Virus record (IMG/VR): IMGVR_UViG_3300032251_000001
Span: 71,789-135,788 of that record
From: a virus
Length of the DNA: 64,000 nucleotides
Reading direction: 5' to 3' (one strand)
Shown here one piece after another: positions 24,921-37,485 of this stretch (within the stretch, counting starts at the first letter, position 1; every line of letters starts with the position of its first letter). The notes under the pieces were generated by a model. It did no database searches and had not been told where the DNA came from. It was given only the letters and a program-made list of their open reading frames with translations. The translations under genes and the position numbers were made by a program.

Positions 24921-26234
24921 ATGCCTAAAAAAAGAACACATGAAGAATTTATTAATAAACTCCACAATGAAAAAGGAGATATATTTACAGTTCTAAGTAA
25001 GTTTAATGGAAATAAAAATAAGATTAAAGTAAGACATAATAAATGTGGTAACGAATGGGATATATTTCCAAGTAATTTATTAAAGACTAATACTTGTCCT
25101 AAATGTAGTAGGAAAGCTAAATCAATGACTAAAGAAGAGTTTTTAAAAAGATTACATACTAAACATGGTAATGAATATAGTCTTATTTCTGAATTCATAT
25201 CTACACGTAATAAGGTTAAAATAAGACATAATGATTGTGGTCATGAATGGGAAGTTATGCCTTTAATTATAATTAAACATAAATGTCCTATATGTAGTAA
25301 CAAAGCTAGAGTACTAACTAATGAAGAATTTGTTGAAAGAATTAATAATAAGCATCATGGTACGATTGAAATATTGAGTGAATATGTAGGTATACATGAT
25401 AAGCTTACAGCAAAACATGTTACATGTGGTCATGAATGGGAAGTTACACCTGGAACTTTACTGAATATTGATAAACCTAGTGATAGTTGTCCAAATTGTT
25501 GTAGAGATAAAACTACTAAGACACATGAAGACTTTGTTAAACAAGCTTTTGAGAAGTATGGAGAAGAATATGTTATTCTATCTAAGTATAAATCAGCTCA
25601 TAAGAAGATTAAAGTAAAGCATACTACTTGTGGTACTGAGTATTCAACTATAGCTAGAAAAATGGGTAAATGTCCATTATGCACTGGTGCTGGACAACTT
25701 AGAACACATGAAGACTTTATTAAAAGATTACATATGAGATTTAGTGAAGATAAATTTACCATATTAGGTAAGTATATTAATTCTGAAACTAAAATATTGG
25801 TACGTCATAATAAGTGTGGTTATGAGTGGGAAGTTAAACCTAACTCTATGTTAAATATCAAATCATTTAGGACGTGTCCTAGATGTCATCTTAATAGGAT
25901 ATCTAAAGGTGAAGCTAAAATTGAAGAATATTTATTATTGAACAATATAAAACATGAAAGACAATTTTCATTTAAAGATTGCGTATATAAGAGACCTCTT
26001 AAGTTTGATTTCATTGTTTATTTGAAAGATACTTTATTTTTAATTGAATATGATGGAACTTTCCATTTTGAAACTAACAGAATGTTACATGAAAAAGATA
26101 TAGAAATTAATAAGACTAGAGACCAAATAAAAACTCAATATTGTTTAGATAATAATATAGCTTTACTTAGAATACATCATAAAGATAAAGAAAGAATATA
26201 TGAAATATTGGATGAATATACTAGATGTATATAA
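24921..26234 (+). CDS. free-standing endonuclease-like protein: five Zn-finger repeats plus C-terminal Vsr/DUF559-type PD-(D/E)XK domain
   Basis: Five repeats of T(H/K/N)E(E/D)F...HxxCGxE(W/Y)...CPxC; SKGE...FDF...IEYDG.FH...RD..K. Confidence 0.85.
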   Translation: MPKKRTHEEFINKLHNEKGDIFTVLSKFNGNKNKIKVRHNKCGNEWDIFPSNLLKTNTCPKCSRKAKSMTKEEFLKRLHTKHGNEYSLISEFISTRNKVKIRHNDCGHEWEVMPLIIIKHKCPICSNKARVLTNEEFVERINNKHHGTIEILSEYVGIHDKLTAKHVTCGHEWEVTPGTLLNIDKPSDSCPNCCRDKTTKTHEDFVKQAFEKYGEEYVILSKYKSAHKKIKVKHTTCGTEYSTIARKMGKCPLCTGAGQLRTHEDFIKRLHMRFSEDKFTILGKYINSETKILVRHNKCGYEWEVKPNSMLNIKSFRTCPRCHLNRISKGEAKIEEYLLLNNIKHERQFSFKDCVYKRPLKFDFIVYLKDTLFLIEYDGTFHFETNRMLHEKDIEINKTRDQIKTQYCLDNNIALLRIHHKDKERIYEILDEYTRCI

Positions 26235-26264
26235 TGAATAATGATAATATTAAGGAGAATAACT

Positions 26265-27128
26265 ATGAAAATGTTTAAGAGGAACTGTTGTGACGGAATT
26301 TATAACTCATTTGATGTACACTTTACTGATGCATGTGACAACAAATGTGAACACTGTATTGACATGAAGTATGATGGTCTAGGTATTAAGAAACCTAATC
26401 CTAAAGCTATAGCTGATACCATCTTAAAGAACCAAGAAGGATATGATGACGTATTATTCTTAGGTGGAGAACCATGTTTATATCTTGATGAATTAATAGA
26501 ATGTATTAGAATAATAAAGATACATACTGAATTAAAAGTATTTATAACTACAGCTATTCCTAAGACTTGCTTTGATGAAAGAGAGAAATTTGAAAAATTA
26601 CTTAGAATGGTTGATGGAATTAACTTATCAGTTCAACATTACAGAGAAAGTGAAGCTGACTTTATTAGAAATGTAGGTGAATCTAAATATGATAGACAAG
26701 AGTTCTATAATAGTTTACCACATAAGGATAAGATTAGAATCAATTTAAATATTGTAAAGCCTTTCCTTTACACTAAGCAAGACATCTTAAGTTGTTTACA
26801 ACACTATGATAAGATGGGATTCAACTCTATTAAAATATCTGAAATTCAACATGGTAAAGAGTACTTTGTATCATTTGAAGAAGTATTTGGTATTAAGTTA
26901 GGTTCACCATTCTATCATGGTTGTCAAACATATTTAGATATGGATACAATTACACAAGGTTTTAAAACTCCAGTATTACTTAAACGTTCATGCTTTATGT
27001 GTGAAGAAACACTTAAAGCTTCGTTTATGGATGGAGTTAAAGTTGTTCATCAATCTATATTTAAAAAGGTTGATAATAAATACTCTGTTATCTATGGTAA
27101 TGGGAAAAAAGAAGGAGGTTGGGTTTAA
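26265..27128 (+). CDS. radical SAM enzyme, putative peptide maturase
   Basis: CDNKCEHC (CxxxCxxC), FLGGEP; start moved to ATG 26265 after taaggag. Confidence 0.88.
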   Translation: MKMFKRNCCDGIYNSFDVHFTDACDNKCEHCIDMKYDGLGIKKPNPKAIADTILKNQEGYDDVLFLGGEPCLYLDELIECIRIIKIHTELKVFITTAIPKTCFDEREKFEKLLRMVDGINLSVQHYRESEADFIRNVGESKYDRQEFYNSLPHKDKIRINLNIVKPFLYTKQDILSCLQHYDKMGFNSIKISEIQHGKEYFVSFEEVFGIKLGSPFYHGCQTYLDMDTITQGFKTPVLLKRSCFMCEETLKASFMDGVKVVHQSIFKKVDNKYSVIYGNGKKEGGWV

Positions 27129-27211
27129 TGTTTACTAAAACACTAAGAAAGATTGTAGTTGCAACAAGAAATGCTAATGGTCATTGCAGTTCTACAGGAC
27201 ATTGTTCTTAA
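27128..27211 (+). CDS. 27-aa putative RiPP precursor MFTKTLRKIVVATRNANGHCSSTGHCS (not in ORF track)
   Basis: AGGAGG at 27113-27118; ATG overlaps the rSAM stop (TAATG); paralogous to the next peptide. Confidence 0.8.
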   Translation: MFTKTLRKIVVATRNANGHCSSTGHCS

Positions 27212-27221
27212 GGAGGATGTT

Positions 27222-27323
27222 ATGTTTACTAAATTAATGAGAAAGATTTTAACAAGACATAGTTATGGTAATGGTCACTGTGTTCCAGACAAGCCAGACA
27301 AGCCAGTAGGTCACTGTTATTAA
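27222..27323 (+). CDS. 33-aa putative RiPP precursor MFTKLMRKILTRHSYGNGHCVPDKPDKPVGHCY (not in ORF track)
   Basis: TAAGGAGG at 27209-27216; shared MFTKxxRKI leader and two GHC motifs. Confidence 0.8.
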   Translation: MFTKLMRKILTRHSYGNGHCVPDKPDKPVGHCY

Positions 27324-27329
27324 TTATTG

Positions 27330-27360
27330 AAAAAATAACCTCATAGGTTATTTTTTTTTT
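27330..27360 (+). terminator. intrinsic terminator closing the rSAM-peptide operon
   Basis: aaaaaataacc-tcata-ggttatttttt hairpin plus T tract. Confidence 0.75.
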
Positions 27361-27409: not shown

Positions 27410-28630
27410 ATGGCTAAGAGAAAGATAACAGACCAAGAAAAAACTAGACTGTTAAGTTTAAAGACTGAAGACGTGACACTTGAGTTACTTAAAGAGTTAT
27501 TTGCAGCAACATCTAAGCGTAATGCTAAACATAATACAAATGATTACTTTATTATATCTGACCTAGATATGAAGACACATTTAGATATTAAAGCAGACAA
27601 GTCTACAATGACTACAACCGTAGGTAGATATATATTTAACCTTTTAGTATTAATGCCTAAAATAATTCAACATACAGGCTATGTTAATCATGCCCTAAAT
27701 GGTGGAGCAATAGGTGACTTAGATGATAAAGTATCTAAATTGTTATTAGAACAAAAGATAACTTCAAAGGATATGCATAATTACATTGATAAGACACAAT
27801 GGTTAGGATTTGCACCTAATAACTTTATTTGTTCATCAATGTCATATGAATTACTAAATCCTATCCCAGAAGTTGAAAAACGTAAGAAAGAATTAGTTAA
27901 AGAGAAAGCTAAAGAATTAGAAGCAGGTGATGTATATGCTGCTGGTGCTATGGAAGATGAATTATTAGGTATTGCTAAAGATAAGATGAAAGATATGGAA
28001 GCTTATGAAGTATATGCTAGTGGAGCTAGAGGTTCTTTTGGTAACAACTATAAGAATACTAGTGTTATGAGGGGTGCAATACGACATCCAGCAGACCCTA
28101 ATAGATATGATATCAGTACTCATAATCTTATTGAAGGAACACCAAAAGAAGAGTTTGAAGAGTATGCTAACATGACTGTAGCTGCATCTGCATCTAGAGC
28201 CTTATCTACACAACAAGGTGGATATATTGGTAAACAACTTCATGCAGCTTTCCAGACATTAGTATTGGATAAAGCTGGCAGTAACTGTGGTACTACTAAG
28301 ACTGTTAAGATACTCATTACTGATAATAATGCATCTAAATTAATGTATAGATATATAGTTAGTGGTAGTAAATTAATACTATTAGATGAAGCAACAATAT
28401 CTAAATATATTGGTAAAGTTGTTAATTTAAGAACACCAATGATGTGTATATCAGACCATATATGTAGTAAATGTGCTGGAGAATTATATTATCGTCTGGA
28501 TATTGAAAACGTTGGTCTTATAACTAACCGAGTTGGTACTAAACTAATGAACCTTGCATTAAAGTCATTCCATGATAGTACTGTAAAGGTTAAGAAGATT
28601 AATATTGATGATTTTATTCATTCAGTTTAG
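27410..28630 (+). CDS. rpoC: phage multisubunit RNA polymerase beta-prime, C-terminal part
   Basis: GARG, MRG, TQQGGYIGKQL (bridge helix region), CGT, CSKCAG, ALKSFH (trigger loop region). Confidence 0.85.
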   Translation: MAKRKITDQEKTRLLSLKTEDVTLELLKELFAATSKRNAKHNTNDYFIISDLDMKTHLDIKADKSTMTTTVGRYIFNLLVLMPKIIQHTGYVNHALNGGAIGDLDDKVSKLLLEQKITSKDMHNYIDKTQWLGFAPNNFICSSMSYELLNPIPEVEKRKKELVKEKAKELEAGDVYAAGAMEDELLGIAKDKMKDMEAYEVYASGARGSFGNNYKNTSVMRGAIRHPADPNRYDISTHNLIEGTPKEEFEEYANMTVAASASRALSTQQGGYIGKQLHAAFQTLVLDKAGSNCGTTKTVKILITDNNASKLMYRYIVSGSKLILLDEATISKYIGKVVNLRTPMMCISDHICSKCAGELYYRLDIENVGLITNRVGTKLMNLALKSFHDSTVKVKKINIDDFIHSV

Positions 28631-28639
28631 GAGGTATAT

Positions 28640-29173
28640 ATGTTTTTACATGAAACAATTATATTACCTAAAGAAGATACTTACTTCCAGTATGATTTAT
28701 GGGAAGATGGTAAATCAGATGTATTACTAATAACAGGATTAGTTGGTAGTGGTAAGAGTACTTTAGGTAGACAAATGGCAGAAGAAGAAGGATGTGAATT
28801 CTATGAATTGGACTGGATGGAGCATGCTATGAGAGAAACACTAGGTAAAGATGCTGATAAGCTTAGAGACTCTGAGTTCAGAAGGAAATATGCTACAGAT
28901 TTCTTCAAAACTAGAATACTTAATAAACGATTTAGAGGTAAAAGAGTTATAGTTGAAGGCGTTAAAGTAATGAGAATGGATAGAGATTATATGGCTACTT
29001 TTCCAATCATTATAAAAGAAACTTCAGCAGTTGTATCTTCTGTTAGAGCTATTAATAGGGAACGAAAACGTGATGAAGAAAATATATTTCAAAATGTACA
29101 TACTACATTGAAGTATAATAAACGATTCATAAAGTTAGTTAAAGAATTTAAAAAAGATTTAGGAATAAGATAA
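28640..29173 (+). CDS. P-loop kinase (nucleotide-kinase/AAA_17-like)
   Basis: Walker A GLVGSGKST, ELD, VIVEG. Confidence 0.75.
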   Translation: MFLHETIILPKEDTYFQYDLWEDGKSDVLLITGLVGSGKSTLGRQMAEEEGCEFYELDWMEHAMRETLGKDADKLRDSEFRRKYATDFFKTRILNKRFRGKRVIVEGVKVMRMDRDYMATFPIIIKETSAVVSSVRAINRERKRDEENIFQNVHTTLKYNKRFIKLVKEFKKDLGIR

Positions 29174-29274: not shown

Positions 29275-29847
29275 ATGGGAGAATTAGTTTATGATGGCTT
29301 TAATAAAATTGAAATCATTGATTGTGAAGTAAAAGGTAAGATGGTTAAAAGAGAAAAACTTCATATAAATGATGCAGTTGCTGGATTAGTTTATGACTGT
29401 GAAGAAAGAATGTGTCTAGTAGAGCAGTTTAGACCTGTTCCTGGTAAGATGTCTTATGAAATACCTGCAGGTGTTATGGATAAAGGTAAAAATCCAAGAG
29501 ACACTCTTATGGAAGAATTAAGTGAGGAATGTGATTTACACATTAAAGATTTAGTAGATTTCTATTCAGGAGATATTGCAAAGTATAGAATGTTATCTGG
29601 AAGTTCAGATTCAGTAATGACTATCTATGAAATATGTGTTGTACCACAGTTTGACAAAAATGGTAAACTTTTAAAAGAAAAACCAGTAGATGATGTAGAT
29701 GTATCATCAGTTCATTGGTGTACTCTTGAAGAAGTTGAAAAATTGATTCATACTGGTAGTATAGCTGATGGGAAAACTATTATAGCATACTATCACTTTA
29801 AAGATATGATAATGAAACTTAGACGAGATGCAGCAGGAGTATATTAA
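29275..29847 (+). CDS. NUDIX hydrolase (ADP-ribose pyrophosphatase-like)
   Basis: EQFRP...EIPAGVMD...EELSEE Nudix box; IADGKT. Confidence 0.85.
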   Translation: MGELVYDGFNKIEIIDCEVKGKMVKREKLHINDAVAGLVYDCEERMCLVEQFRPVPGKMSYEIPAGVMDKGKNPRDTLMEELSEECDLHIKDLVDFYSGDIAKYRMLSGSSDSVMTIYEICVVPQFDKNGKLLKEKPVDDVDVSSVHWCTLEEVEKLIHTGSIADGKTIIAYYHFKDMIMKLRRDAAGVY

Positions 29848-30308: not shown

Positions 30309-31679
30309 ATGAAATTGAAATTCGTTAGCTTTGACGACATGTATGATGAAAAATGCGTGGTGAACAATCATGAAGGAATAGATTCAAAAACAAAAAAGTT
30401 TAATGCAGATGGAATTTTCTCTGAGAGCATCTTCGGTAAGCTTGACAATGAAAGCGTAGCTTTTACTTGTTCATGTGGGAAGAAGAAGGGTAAATTTTAT
30501 GAAGGCACTTCATGTGAAGAATGTAACAGTGATGTTGTGTTCACAGAACCAATGGTAAATAGAAGAGCATGGATTTTACTAAATGACTTCTATATATTAA
30601 ATCCCAATTTCTATAAATTCTTAACAAAGATTTGTAAGAAAACAACGCTTAATAACATTATAGCGTATCAAGGGAAACTTGATAAAGATGGAGTTATCGT
30701 CGATAGTGAAACTGATGACTGTCCTTATAATAATATAGGATTAGTTGAATTCAGAGAAAGATTTGATGAGATATTAGATTACTTCCATAAAACATCTAAT
30801 AGTAAGATTAAAGATTCAATATATAATCTTATAAAGAAGAACAAAGAGCATGTATTTATTAATAAAGTTCCAGTGTATTCAACTACTCTAAGACCTGCTT
30901 TGATGATGAAAGAGAAATTGATATTTGATGAAGTAAACAATACTTACAACTCGATTATCCTTAACTCAAACATTATAAAGGAAGTAAATCAAATAGAGAG
31001 TGAAGATGGTAAACTTACTATATATCCATTGATGTACAACATTCAACTTCAAGCCAACCAAGTATTTGAAAAGATTGTTGATAACATTAAAGGTAAGAGT
31101 GGTTTCATTAGAAATAATATGATGGGAAGTAGAGTTAACTTCTCAGCAAGAACTGTAATTACACCATTACCTTCTGGTTATGGTATTGATTCTATTGTTG
31201 TTCCATATTTAGCATTTATGGAGTTGTACAAGTTCCAGATACTCAATATACTAAGTCGTGTTAAAGGTATCAGTATTGGGGAAGCTAATACTATATGGAA
31301 TAAAGGTACAACAACATTTAGTCAAGAATTATATGACATAATGAAAGAAATAATTAAAAAGGTAGATTGTAAAGTATTACTTAACAGACCACCTACTATT
31401 TCATATGGTTCTATTCTATGTTTAACAATAGTTGATATTAAGCATGACTATGATGATTTAACTTCAAGTATTCATAATTGTATATTAGATTTACTTGCAG
31501 GTGACTATGATGGTGATGTATTGTCTATTTTCCCATTGATAGATGAGTCATTAAAGAGAACATTCAGTAAGTCATTCAGTCCACGTAACATGCTTATCAG
31601 TAGTGATAACGGTATGTTTAATGGTAGATTGAATATAGATAGAGACCAAGCGTTAGGTATCTATAGTTTTAATTGTTAA
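30309..31679 (+). CDS. rpoC: phage multisubunit RNA polymerase beta-prime, N-terminal/catalytic part
   Basis: GIFSESIFG, Zn finger CSC...CEEC, LRP, KSGFIR, RVNFSARTVI, LNRPP, catalytic AGDYDGD. Confidence 0.92.
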   Translation: MKLKFVSFDDMYDEKCVVNNHEGIDSKTKKFNADGIFSESIFGKLDNESVAFTCSCGKKKGKFYEGTSCEECNSDVVFTEPMVNRRAWILLNDFYILNPNFYKFLTKICKKTTLNNIIAYQGKLDKDGVIVDSETDDCPYNNIGLVEFRERFDEILDYFHKTSNSKIKDSIYNLIKKNKEHVFINKVPVYSTTLRPALMMKEKLIFDEVNNTYNSIILNSNIIKEVNQIESEDGKLTIYPLMYNIQLQANQVFEKIVDNIKGKSGFIRNNMMGSRVNFSARTVITPLPSGYGIDSIVVPYLAFMELYKFQILNILSRVKGISIGEANTIWNKGTTTFSQELYDIMKEIIKKVDCKVLLNRPPTISYGSILCLTIVDIKHDYDDLTSSIHNCILDLLAGDYDGDVLSIFPLIDESLKRTFSKSFSPRNMLISSDNGMFNGRLNIDRDQALGIYSFNC

Positions 31680-35321: not shown

Positions 35322-37118
35322 TTAAACTTCTAATATCTTTGCTTTAACAGTTTTGAATTTAACATCATCCATCTTAATATTAGGTTTAAAGAAATCATTA
35401 AACCAATCAATAAATACTTCCTCTTTAGTTAATTCAACACCAAATCCAGCTACATCTTGTAAGAACTCAGACTTATTAATAGAAGAGCCTGGACAAGTCT
35501 TACTAGAATACTCATTATGGAATACACTCTTAATGTTAAATAATCCATTAAAGTACTTAGTGAATTCAAGCATAGATTCTTTTTGTGGACCACTAAATGT
35601 ATCATTACCTTTATCAAAGTTTGCAATCATTTCAATAGCAAATCCTAGGTAATTTCTACCTTTAATTGATGCAGGGTTACTGTTAAAGTCTCTACCAACA
35701 ATCCACTTACCATCTGGAGCTAATGATAGATGTTGACCTATATCTCTCCATTTAAGAGTATTTACATGGTAGTTCCACATACCTTGCTGTAGTGACTGAT
35801 GGTTAGTACCAGTAAAGTGTTTGTGAGAAGGACTCCAAGTATGATGAACATGTAACTCTCTAGGAGTTCTAGTCCATTTAAATTGTTGACAATACTTAAT
35901 TAATTCAGCAGTTGTCATTACTTTAAATCTTTCATCTTCACTACCAACTAACTTAATATACTTACCACTTGTCCATTTATCTTCACCAATTCTATACCAA
36001 CCATTCTTCTCTTCATAAACTTTAACAACTTCATTTCGGTCTAAACGGTCTACAATAGGACAGTCTTTATAATTTGAACTACTAACAACTTTACCACCAC
36101 GAATATTCAATACACTTGTGCCAGTAACTATACCTTTTTGTGTTTCTTCTTCTACAGGCTTTGGAATTACTTTAACGTAATCTCTAACATATGCCTTATT
36201 TGCAGATATAAATTGATTTTTATCAGTTCTATACCAACCATTAGCTACACCAGTTACAGTAACAATGTCTCCTTTAAAGTAATCTCCAACATCATCATAC
36301 TGGACACCAGAACCTTCTCTAATATTTAATCTTGTAGCAATAATTTGAACTTTCTTGTTAATTTTTTCCATGTGATTATCAACATAGTCAATCTTATATT
36401 CTTTAGCATAAATAACTAAGGCATTAGCAATATTTCTTTCAACTCCACCATTAAGATAGTTAACAACTTTACCATCAACTTCCATTTCAGATGAACCACC
36501 ACCATCAGCGTTAACTGAGTTGTGTGCCTGTAGTTCCATCATAACTTCAGCACTTTCTTCAGCTGTAAGTCCTTTATCATTAGTATTTCTACCTTCAGCA
36601 ACAACTAATAACATAGTGTTATCAAGTCTTTGACCAACTAATGTTCTTGGATGTCTTTCATTAGAATGTGTATGATGTTCAGCACCTTCTAAATTAATTT
36701 CACCATCTTTAGTAAGTCTATAAGATAATGATGCACCCCATTGTGCTTTTCGGTCATACTTAGCTTTGAATTCTGCAGTACTTATATCTTCAATAATAAG
36801 TTTATTATTCATAAAGATAGTTTCCATAAAACCTTTACCAATAGAATCTGGTGTACTGAATGTGAAACCACTATCAGTATAGTCTAATCCTACTGCTGCA
36901 ACCTTTTTTACCCATGCAAAGAAAGATAAGTTTACTGCTGCAACTTTCTTATAACCTCTGTCTTCAAACCATTTGTGTCTAATTTTAGTTAAAGGTTCTC
37001 TTTTCTTTCTATCTCCAGCACAGTTCATTACAATTAAGTCTTTACTAGGCATGAATTCTAAAACATGAATATCTGTACCAAATCTTCTCATAGTACTATA
37101 TTTAACCAACTGCTTCAT
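35322..37118 (-). CDS. modular endolysin: phosphodiester glycosidase (NAGPA/DUF2233) + 2x SH3b + Amidase_2
   Basis: HPRT...EGR...GLT...NADGGGSS; two LNIR...GWYR SH3b repeats; HVHHT...DIGQH...AIE...H...KTCPG; start moved to ATG 37118 (SD aggagg). Confidence 0.85.
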   Translation of the reverse strand: MKQLVKYSTMRRFGTDIHVLEFMPSKDLIVMNCAGDRKKREPLTKIRHKWFEDRGYKKVAAVNLSFFAWVKKVAAVGLDYTDSGFTFSTPDSIGKGFMETIFMNNKLIIEDISTAEFKAKYDRKAQWGASLSYRLTKDGEINLEGAEHHTHSNERHPRTLVGQRLDNTMLLVVAEGRNTNDKGLTAEESAEVMMELQAHNSVNADGGGSSEMEVDGKVVNYLNGGVERNIANALVIYAKEYKIDYVDNHMEKINKKVQIIATRLNIREGSGVQYDDVGDYFKGDIVTVTGVANGWYRTDKNQFISANKAYVRDYVKVIPKPVEEETQKGIVTGTSVLNIRGGKVVSSSNYKDCPIVDRLDRNEVVKVYEEKNGWYRIGEDKWTSGKYIKLVGSEDERFKVMTTAELIKYCQQFKWTRTPRELHVHHTWSPSHKHFTGTNHQSLQQGMWNYHVNTLKWRDIGQHLSLAPDGKWIVGRDFNSNPASIKGRNYLGFAIEMIANFDKGNDTFSGPQKESMLEFTKYFNGLFNIKSVFHNEYSSKTCPGSSINKSEFLQDVAGFGVELTKEEVFIDWFNDFFKPNIKMDDVKFKTVKAKILEV

Positions 37119-37485
37119 CATCGTCCTCCTCTTCTGAATCATAACCATAATCATTATAGTCACGATAATCTTCTTCATTGTTATTAGTTACCTTAACTCG
37201 GTTATCTTCTTTCTTGTTAAGTACTTTGTCATTTCGACTAACAAACTTGTTAACCATTTTAGTTCCAAAGTAACCACCCAATATAACCATAAGTGGATTT
37301 GACATAATTCTTAATGTGTCTACTACTGCATCTTGAATGTTACTTTCAAGAAATAGACCCTTCCATACAATCATACCTGATGCGGCTACAAATGCTATAA
37401 CAAATACCACACTTATAAAATCGGTGATTGATACTCCATCCGCATCATTAAGAAAAGTTCTAATTTTTCGTGCCATGATATGCAC
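37102..37485 (-). CDS. putative holin (two TM helices, charged C-terminal tail)
   Basis: Two TM segments; overlaps the endolysin start. Confidence 0.6.
   Translation of the reverse strand: MHIMARKIRTFLNDADGVSITDFISVVFVIAFVAASGMIVWKGLFLESNIQDAVVDTLRIMSNPLMVILGGYFGTKMVNKFVSRNDKVLNKKEDNRVKVTNNNEEDYRDYNDYGYDSEEEDDDEAVG

Follow-up and report, generated by a model that had tools for sequence, protein, structure and literature searches.

The 64,000-nucleotide stretch of DNA analyzed here (positions 71,789 to 135,788 of the virus record IMGVR_UViG_3300032251_000001, hereafter the window) harbors, between positions 26,265 and 27,360, a compact cassette in which the gene for a small radical S-adenosylmethionine (SAM) enzyme is followed by two very short genes, termed here pepA and pepB, that encode peptides carrying paired Cys motifs. 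The cassette is probably a phage-borne, minimal pairing of maturase and precursor akin to those found in systems for peptides synthesized by ribosomes and modified after translation (RiPPs), with the radical SAM enzyme acting on the Cys motifs of its partner. A leader/core RiPP had been proposed for this locus in an original prediction made from the DNA letters alone, and this interpretation now receives strong support from comparative genomics, and also from natural fusions of enzyme and peptide and from a controlled model of their complex. To our knowledge, nearly all described radical SAM RiPP systems come from bacterial gene clusters, whose maturases bear SPASM domains and RiPP recognition elements (RREs) and are accompanied by proteases and exporters. 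Here, the same logic is reduced to two genes and approximately 1 kb, involves a substrate peptide family that has never been curated, and is found in about 300 sequence clusters from phages ranging from ~55-kb genomes to the 540-kb Lak megaphages.

Organization of the cassette

The radical SAM gene (26265–27128, + strand) encodes a protein of 287 aa and terminates in a TAA codon at 27126–27128. Its Shine-Dalgarno (SD) sequence, AAGGAG (26250–26256, + strand), can be read directly 8 nt upstream of the ATG at 26265, and homologs of the enzyme begin at the equivalent Met. The codons of its CX3CX2C triad (C24, C28, and C31) lie at 26334–26357. The stop codon of the enzyme gene and the ATG of pepA share one base (TAATG, position 27128), as had been claimed, and the pepA SD, GAAGGAGG (27111–27118, + strand), falls inside the final codons of the enzyme gene, 10 nt 5' of the pepA start. 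pepA (27128–27211, + strand) encodes a 27-aa peptide, MFTKTLRKIVVATRNANGHCSSTGHCS, with a putative leader beginning MFTKTLRKIVV and a core of the form NGHC-SST-GHC-S. A second SD, AAGGAGG (27210–27216, + strand), overlaps the pepA stop, and 5 nt later begins pepB (27222–27323, + strand), with a 33-aa product, MFTKLMRKILTRHSYGNGHCVPDKPDKPVGHCY, that combines a putative leader beginning MFTKLMRKILT with the core NGHC-VPDKPDKPV-GHC-Y. The two peptides thus share the MFTKxxRKI start and display two GHC motifs each, the second of them one residue from the C-terminus, and the description of two short peptides with their own SD sites, a common leader, and duplicated GHC motifs can be read directly from the DNA.

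The terminator postulated downstream of the second peptide is backed by RNA folding. An AU-rich hairpin followed by a U-tract (27329–27360, + strand) probably serves all three genes as an intrinsic terminator; the hairpin proper (27329–27357) has a 13 bp stem and a folding energy of -10.8 kcal/mol (z = -3.3 against shuffled sequences). A consensus terminator scan did not call this hairpin 3' of pepB, because its stem contains fewer than three G-C pairs. The notion that the peptides are unannotated stands in part: in some public assemblies (loci L128, L129, and L131) gene callers did call peptides of 32–37 aa, without giving them a name, and the partner peptides are therefore not universally unannotated.

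Conservation and diversification of the partner peptides

The association between enzyme and peptide was assessed on 132 loci collected from IMG/VR, GTDB genome contigs, public assemblies, and Lak phages in GenBank. A partner with C-terminal Cys repeats accompanies about 74 of the 79 distinct enzyme homologs, at identities down to ~30% and with Lak megaphages included. The original prediction had proposed scanning the vicinity of homologs for short open reading frames (ORFs) with GHC motifs, and among the 50 loci with enzymes of at least 50% identity such a downstream peptide is present in essentially all cases, bearing two or four (G)HC motifs behind an M[FYW]T[KR] leader. In these loci the partner ORF spans 27–62 aa, starts with M[FYW]T[KR]xLRK at -9 to +72 nt from the enzyme stop, and places its last (G)HC motif 0–3 residues from the C-terminus.

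Among homologs with 30–47% identity, the partner is kept but altered in form. The partner in L057 is MFTKFIKWICGHCCGGGGCS and that in L056 ends in ...SGCHEGPHDHCHAW, while the peptides of L110–113 display a GCH...GCH arrangement, L122 has four xCHG and L106 four GGHCG motifs, L050 has a NAC...SICGN pattern without His, and L119 presents three motifs (YGCG...YRCG...GGRC). A long class (L090–L104 and L123) comprises partners of 89–111 aa with a helical N-terminal domain and 4–8 GGCG repeats, ending in ...GRC or ...GGC, and the partner ORFs of Lak phages, ending in ...SGGC-x-SGGC, are members of this class. Compared with Lak-C1 (L002) and the Lak-B phages, the Lak-A2 phage (L001) shows a frameshift in the long partner ORF ahead of the ...SGGC...SGGC tail; translation in these phages requires TAG to be taken as a sense codon.

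The spacers between motifs consist of 2 to ~13 residues of Gly, Ser, Asp, or Pro, and in the main clade the motifs occur strictly in pairs or double pairs. Since His, Asn, and the number of motifs vary by clade, the only universal substrate feature in the peptides compared is a group of Cys residues, flanked by small residues, at the very C-terminal end. No significant match to NCBIfam, Pfam, or PHROG families was obtained for pepA, pepB, and six distant partners, and neither pepB nor a long-class partner yielded a usable match in the ESM Atlas.

The presence of two separate precursors is seen in none of the 132 other loci. The closest relative of the enzyme, with 73% identity and encoded on a 162-kb scaffold (L128), is followed by a single peptide, MYTKFLRKLLTRRAYGNGHCVPESPKPSGHCY, that is an ortholog of pepB, and since this relative has the pepB-type peptide only, comparison of the two loci identifies pepA, in the translationally coupled position, as a lineage-specific extra copy. 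In six loci, a single peptide comprises two fused modules, with four HC motifs and a vestigial ETLYRK leader remnant between its halves. The 58–62-aa four-HC peptides of L024, L029, L032, L041, and their duplicates, with an inner remnant ETLYRK[IV]G, resemble two fused precursor modules, and lie 25–33 nt 3' of the enzyme gene without a recognizable SD.

The Cys motifs are highly specific to the cassette. A six-frame search of the window for the pattern HC-x(2-16)-HC-x(0-3)-stop yields two matches, pepA and pepB, against 0.14 in shuffled sequences, and the same two are the only matches in the whole 135.8-kb genome. Across related loci totaling 360 kb, the six-frame search gives 48 matches, every one of them directly 3' of the enzyme gene and on its strand, with none elsewhere. 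Codon usage at the conserved positions is varied across loci, with four different synonymous codons for the motif Gly, two for His, two for Cys, and four for Thr3 of the leader. A recognizable SD precedes 26 of 32 peptides, and in the majority of homolog loci an SD falls within the codons for a conserved K-G-W at the enzyme C-terminus. These observations show protein-level selection on the partner peptides.

Enzyme and peptide have also diversified together. When automatically assigned partner classes were mapped onto a quick tree of 79 distinct enzymes, 19 label changes were required, compared with a mean of 43.3 after shuffling and with none of 200 shuffles as low; four entries were mislabeled (L059, L064, L074, and L075, from the same contigs as L005, L012, L019, and L020, which carry GHC peptides). 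The long class and the Lak phages form one well-supported clade of this tree. Moreover, two family members are in-frame fusions of enzyme and peptide: P0125 (346 aa, 47% identity) carries a ...DCH...GHC tail and ends in ...SHDCHSGRGSRTGHC, with only opposite-strand genes downstream on its contig, and P0242 (361 aa, 31% identity) carries a ...GCH...GCH tail and ends in ...FGCHAKLPVSRGCH. In a further locus (L020/L075, IMGVR_UViG_3300029706_000244), the enzyme frame continues into the peptide frame and the enzyme alignment ends at residue 277, which points either to a further natural fusion or to a 1-nt error in the assembly. Another member grouped with the fusions, P0157, matches HTH_17 weakly and has one QCHG close to its end.

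No other gene accompanies the pair. When every ORF of 60 aa or more was clustered across the 2.5 kb on either side, no neighbor family proved to be shared by more than 6 of 51 loci, and neighbors vary even among relatives with 70–73% identity, where they include UvdE, PemK, and PHP genes. The lack of any more recurrent neighbor family indicates that no protease, exporter, RRE protein, or immunity gene is dedicated to the cassette.

The radical SAM enzyme and its predicted complex with pepB

The enzyme is a clear member of the radical SAM superfamily, with a PF04055 (Radical_SAM) match of 43.3 bits, above the gathering score of 29.5, and a conserved CX3CX2C motif (C24-x3-C28-x2-C31) in 56 of 56 homologs. 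Beyond a 31-bit match to PF13353 (Fer4_12), Pfam detects nothing else. An exhaustive, profile-free search over 1.84 billion representatives recovered 297 clusters of relatives with E-values no higher than 1e-3, a number that drops to 64 at a limit of 1e-30, and a word-indexed search returned 940 related proteins, many of them from contigs of 100–285 kb. One of the family members, P0172 (695 aa), is possibly a double radical SAM protein: an additional domain of ~385 aa at its N-terminus contains a second CX3CX2C-like motif (CPCGCKFC), and Pfam recognizes two Radical_SAM stretches.

All NCBIfam models score well under their cut-offs on the enzyme. The best, TIGR04100 'rSAM_pair_X', reaches 39.6 of a required 262, followed by a TatD-linked radical SAM model (39.4 vs. 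130), and the scores are lower for viperin (the prokaryotic model NF038283, 27.3 bits vs. 180; TIGR04278, 15.2 vs. 450), for the glycyl-radical enzyme activase models TIGR02494, TIGR02495, and TIGR02826 (17.5 vs. 174, 21.7 vs. 131, and 19.9 vs. 152, respectively), for HxsC (16.8 vs. 268), and for PapB (13 bits vs. 340). As anticipated from its sequence, the enzyme lacks a canonical SPASM domain, and searches of Pfam and NCBIfam with E limits of 0.1 or 1 gave no match to this family. Neither was any family match to an RRE (PqqD-like) domain found in the enzyme, which has just 23 residues N-terminal of the CX3CX2C motif.

In an alignment of 56 diverse homologs, with identities down to 27%, the invariant positions are N7, C9, D10, the C24/C28/C31 triad, the SAM-binding GGEP motif at 67–70, P99, S122, E193, C220, C243, and K259; D256 is likewise invariant in the family. 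Outside the triad, exactly three Cys residues (C9, C220, and C243) occur in all 56 homologs, with C220 and C243 being the only invariant Cys in the C-terminal third, and C8, C71, C102, C177, and C246 are variable. The extra Cys highlighted in the original prediction (NCC at the N-terminus and C...CFMC at the C-terminus) are present, and those at positions 9, 220, and 243 are universal, but C8 and C246 are not family features.

The AlphaFold2 model of the enzyme is of high confidence, with a predicted local distance difference test score (pLDDT) of 96 and a predicted template modeling score (pTM) of 0.92. Its nearest structures are in a near tie and comprise MoaA (Z 17.1), SuiB (17.0), GDGT-MAS (16.7), viperin (16.6), the pyruvate formate-lyase activating enzyme (PFL-AE, 16.1), CteB (16.1), ChlB (15.1), SkfB (14.6), and the anaerobic sulfatase-maturating enzyme (anSME, 14.3); EpeE/YydG is a further fold neighbor (11.8), and CteB ranks first in a Foldseek search. 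In sequence-profile comparisons with solved chains, viperin-like enzymes are closest (E ~1e-17), with a match confined to core residues 16–188, and EpeE/YydG is detected at E = 5e-8. We read the enzyme as belonging to an unclassified family of small radical SAM proteins in the neighborhood of auxiliary-cluster and peptide-modifying enzymes. The conserved Cys residues and the fold suggest that it probably has one three-Cys auxiliary site, and on fold grounds a twitch-like, single-cluster site is possible.

The interaction between the enzyme and pepB was modeled from alignments of both partners, together with SAM and two 4Fe-4S clusters. The complex obtained a score of 0.67 (0.65, 0.70, and 0.67 in individual runs), compared with 0.01 for the best of three controls; in the calibration of the method, this mark is reached by 58 of 80 solved complexes and by 2 of 110 mismatched pairs, counts that hold only roughly here because own alignments and small molecules were included. 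The runs have at least 52% of contacts in common, and the pLDDT of the partner is at least 57. In the model, leader residues 2–13 of pepB lie on enzyme residues 244–264, beside the invariant C243, D256, and K259, making the C-terminal helix of the enzyme (250–264) the predicted leader dock. Residues 14–21 of pepB, which include the first GHC motif, touch residues 7–11 of the enzyme (the N-C-D loop), I32 next to the SAM cluster, and Q195. The complex model supports the docking of the leader on the enzyme, but it does not show binding.

A model for peptide modification and its alternatives

In the mechanism proposed here, the amphipathic N-terminal helix of the precursor (M[FYW]T[KR]xLRK) would function as a leader, docking on the C-terminal helix of the enzyme (~244–264), with D256 and K259, without a separate RRE domain. 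The flexible core would then thread toward the SAM cluster and the invariant N7-C9-D10 loop, where C9, C220, and C243 are envisaged as ligands of a single auxiliary [4Fe-4S] cluster with one iron left open. As in sactipeptide and ranthipeptide synthases, the open iron would bind the thiolate of a substrate Cys, and the 5'-deoxyadenosyl radical would take a hydrogen from a nearby carbon, most likely the C-alpha of Gly or another residue, or the residue next to the C-terminus. The resulting S-C thioether would close one small macrocycle per Cys-motif pair. Neither exporter nor protease would be needed in this scheme and, since no exporter is present, the product may act within the infected cell or be released at lysis.

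Thioether macrocyclization through a substrate-thiolate-binding, three-Cys auxiliary cluster is the favored form of the modification, and we regard it as having close to an even chance of being correct. It is favored because Cys is the conserved element of the substrate, because the motifs are paired in the main clade, because CteB, SkfB, and SuiB are among the fold neighbors of the enzyme, and because PapB offers a precedent for the use of a C-terminal acceptor. Several observations weigh against the model. The enzyme displays no SPASM or twitch signature in sequence searches and no RRE, so that the analogy with thioether synthases is based on the fold and on three conserved Cys residues; no acceptor residue is conserved in fixed register across the peptides; and an obvious partner was not seen beside four of the homologs (L102, L114, L120, and L121). 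Furthermore, the occurrence of His on either side of Cys (HC or CH), the variable linkers, and the fused forms would also fit a tail that binds a metal or a cluster.

The cassette could also employ a new chemistry in which the paired His/Cys or Gly/Cys motifs are turned into a metal- or cluster-binding macrocycle by a 287-aa radical SAM enzyme with a single three-Cys auxiliary site and neither SPASM nor RRE. This appears unlikely, but it would make the product a phage-made metallophore or peptide cofactor operating inside an infected anaerobic host, rather than an antibiotic of the bacteriocin type, with conceivable roles in metal sequestration or delivery, or in the disabling of a host metalloenzyme or defense. 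The fused forms would then be self-modifying enzymes.

Other chemistries were not supported. Crosslinks involving Cys-Asn or His had been suggested for pepA and pepB, but only this phage and a small number of relatives have Asn ahead of GHC, and His is missing in whole branches. As family-wide explanations, both a Cys-Asn (NxxC-type) and a His-Cys crosslink were rejected, given that neither Asn nor His is conserved (L050, the long class, and Lak peptides have no His). A His-Xaa-Ser (Hxs) reading of HCS was likewise discarded, since pepB has HCV and HCY and the HxsC model falls far short of its cut-off on the enzyme.

The same enzyme–substrate pair could also engage in a modification of Cys, or of its neighbor, that does not yield a thioether, such as the conversion of Cys to formylglycine (as in anSME), C-alpha epimerization (as in YydG/EpeE), another C-H functionalization, or a new reaction. 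Such an outcome would be in keeping with Cys as the sole universal substrate residue in the absence of a conserved acceptor position, with the presence of anSME and EpeE/YydG among the neighbors of the enzyme, and with motif numbers that are not always even, as in L119, with three, or in the long class, with four to eight. The substrate motif of anSME, C/S-x-P/A-x-R, is not present in the peptides, however, and the strict arrangement of motifs in pairs or double pairs within the main clade suggests that two Cys work together. A three-Cys site with an open iron is, in addition, typical of thiolate-binding thioether synthases such as CteB, and a non-thioether modification is accordingly considered quite unlikely.

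We deem it more improbable that the Cys/His tail constitutes a metal- or Fe-S-binding partner or small subunit, providing ligands, electron transfer, or a scaffold for a metal center, in which case the true substrate of the enzyme would be something else or the metal-loaded peptide would itself be the product. The conserved leader helix followed by a variable core conforms to the standard RiPP layout, two different peptides in this phage and 2 to 8 motifs across the family would be unexpected for a stoichiometric ligand, and the long class is entirely devoid of His. These points stand against an array of features that favor a binding tail, including the placement of His beside Cys in either order (GHC, GCH, and xCHG), the hypervariable and flexible Gly/Ser/Asp spacers, the natural fusions at the enzyme C-terminus, the lack of protease or exporter, and the availability of just three Cys in the enzyme for a putative second cluster. 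The nearest sequence relatives of solved structure are, moreover, the viperins, which act on nucleotides, but the viperin match is limited to the generic radical SAM core and the NF038283 score is far below its cut-off. Lastly, the idea that the short ORFs are chance or untranslated, and that the enzyme is an ordinary activase (of NrdG or PFL-AE type) or a nucleotide-modifying radical SAM enzyme, agrees with the labels given to homologs by JGI pipelines ('organic radical activating enzyme' or 'pyruvate formate-lyase activating enzyme') and with PFL-AE as a fold neighbor, but it is effectively excluded by the strand- and position-exclusive conservation of the peptides, their synonymous codon variation, SD sites, co-diversification, and in-frame fusions, and by NrdG and PFL-AE model scores well below cut-off (21.7 vs. 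131 and 17.5 vs. 174).

Should the maturase–precursor interpretation be correct, the cassette would represent a minimal leader-recognizing radical SAM scaffold, attractive for peptide engineering, and its chemistry would probably reveal how a three-Cys auxiliary site supports reactions on Cys. It would also imply that phages of anaerobic communities (gut, rumen, and digester) routinely make modified peptides, raising the question of the role that these peptides play in infection.

Genomic context

The window has a GC content of 29% and belongs to a jumbo phage. Downstream of the cassette lie two beta-type genes of a split multisubunit RNA polymerase of the phiKZ/AR9 jumbo-phage type (phrog_2962, 27410–28630, + strand; phrog_2987, 30309–31679, + strand), between which are found a P-loop kinase-like gene (28640–29173) and a NUDIX hydrolase gene (29275–29847). 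Directly 5' of the cassette, a gene on the + strand (24921–26234) encodes a 437-aa HNH/homing-endonuclease-like protein (phrog_559, E = 2.5e-115) with repeated treble-clef zinc-ribbon modules (DUF4379 and CapR), and this gene is not found beside the cassette in other loci. On the opposite strand, the product of 35322–37178 is a 618-aa protein with PHROG matches to amidase/endolysin and repeat domains, making it a probable lysin, in keeping with a Gram-positive host. No tRNA was found, and a megablast search of the locus against phage records gave no match.

Comparison with known systems

The closest parallels to the phage cassette are the sactipeptide and ranthipeptide systems (CteB/CteA 'SCIFF', PapB/PapA, SkfB/SkfA, and AlbA/SboA), in which a radical SAM maturase adjoins a short, Cys-bearing precursor composed of leader and core. 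The best fold matches of the phage enzyme include CteB, SkfB, and SuiB, and its conserved Cys set could hold an auxiliary cluster capable of binding the substrate thiolate. It has further been reported that PapB is able to link Cys to the C-terminal residue (PMC12373016), a capability that recalls the near-terminal location of the last Cys in the phage peptides. Unlike sactipeptide and ranthipeptide synthases, which span ~330–450 aa, the 287-aa phage enzyme lacks both a SPASM domain or 7-Cys motif and an RRE at its N-terminus, and has only three invariant extra Cys, with C9 at its extreme N-terminus. The phage precursors, in turn, have no NCBIfam or Pfam model and no conserved Asp, Glu, or other acceptor, and the enzyme family resides on phage contigs or contigs of metagenome-assembled genomes, without transporter or protease. 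The cassette works like a sactipeptide or ranthipeptide system, yet it lacks the features that define membership in one, namely SPASM, RRE, and a curated precursor family.

Other families share individual traits with the cassette. In borosins, an OphMA-type precursor is fused to its modifying enzyme, an N-methyltransferase. P0125 and P0242 resemble this arrangement in having a Cys-motif tail fused in-frame to the enzyme C-terminus and, because of this fusion, these enzymes would modify their own tail. The cassette differs from borosins in that the enzyme is a radical SAM protein and not an N-methyltransferase, and in that the peptide is mostly encoded by a separate, translationally coupled gene, as in the window. 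Viperins, which synthesize 3'-deoxy-3',4'-didehydro-nucleoside triphosphates (ddhNTPs), provide the best profile match among solved structures and one of the highest fold similarities, but the C-terminal third of the phage enzyme, with its invariant C220 and C243, and its obligate peptide partner have no viperin counterpart. TIGR04100 'rSAM_pair_X' and HxsC (His-Xaa-Ser) enzymes are also short radical SAM proteins defined by a co-occurring partner, but both models score well under their cut-offs on the phage enzyme and the partner peptides do not appear to match. No published description of this enzyme–peptide pair was found in a literature search of incomplete coverage. Taken together, these comparisons place the cassette with the radical SAM-modified ribosomal peptides, among which its chemistry is possibly new.

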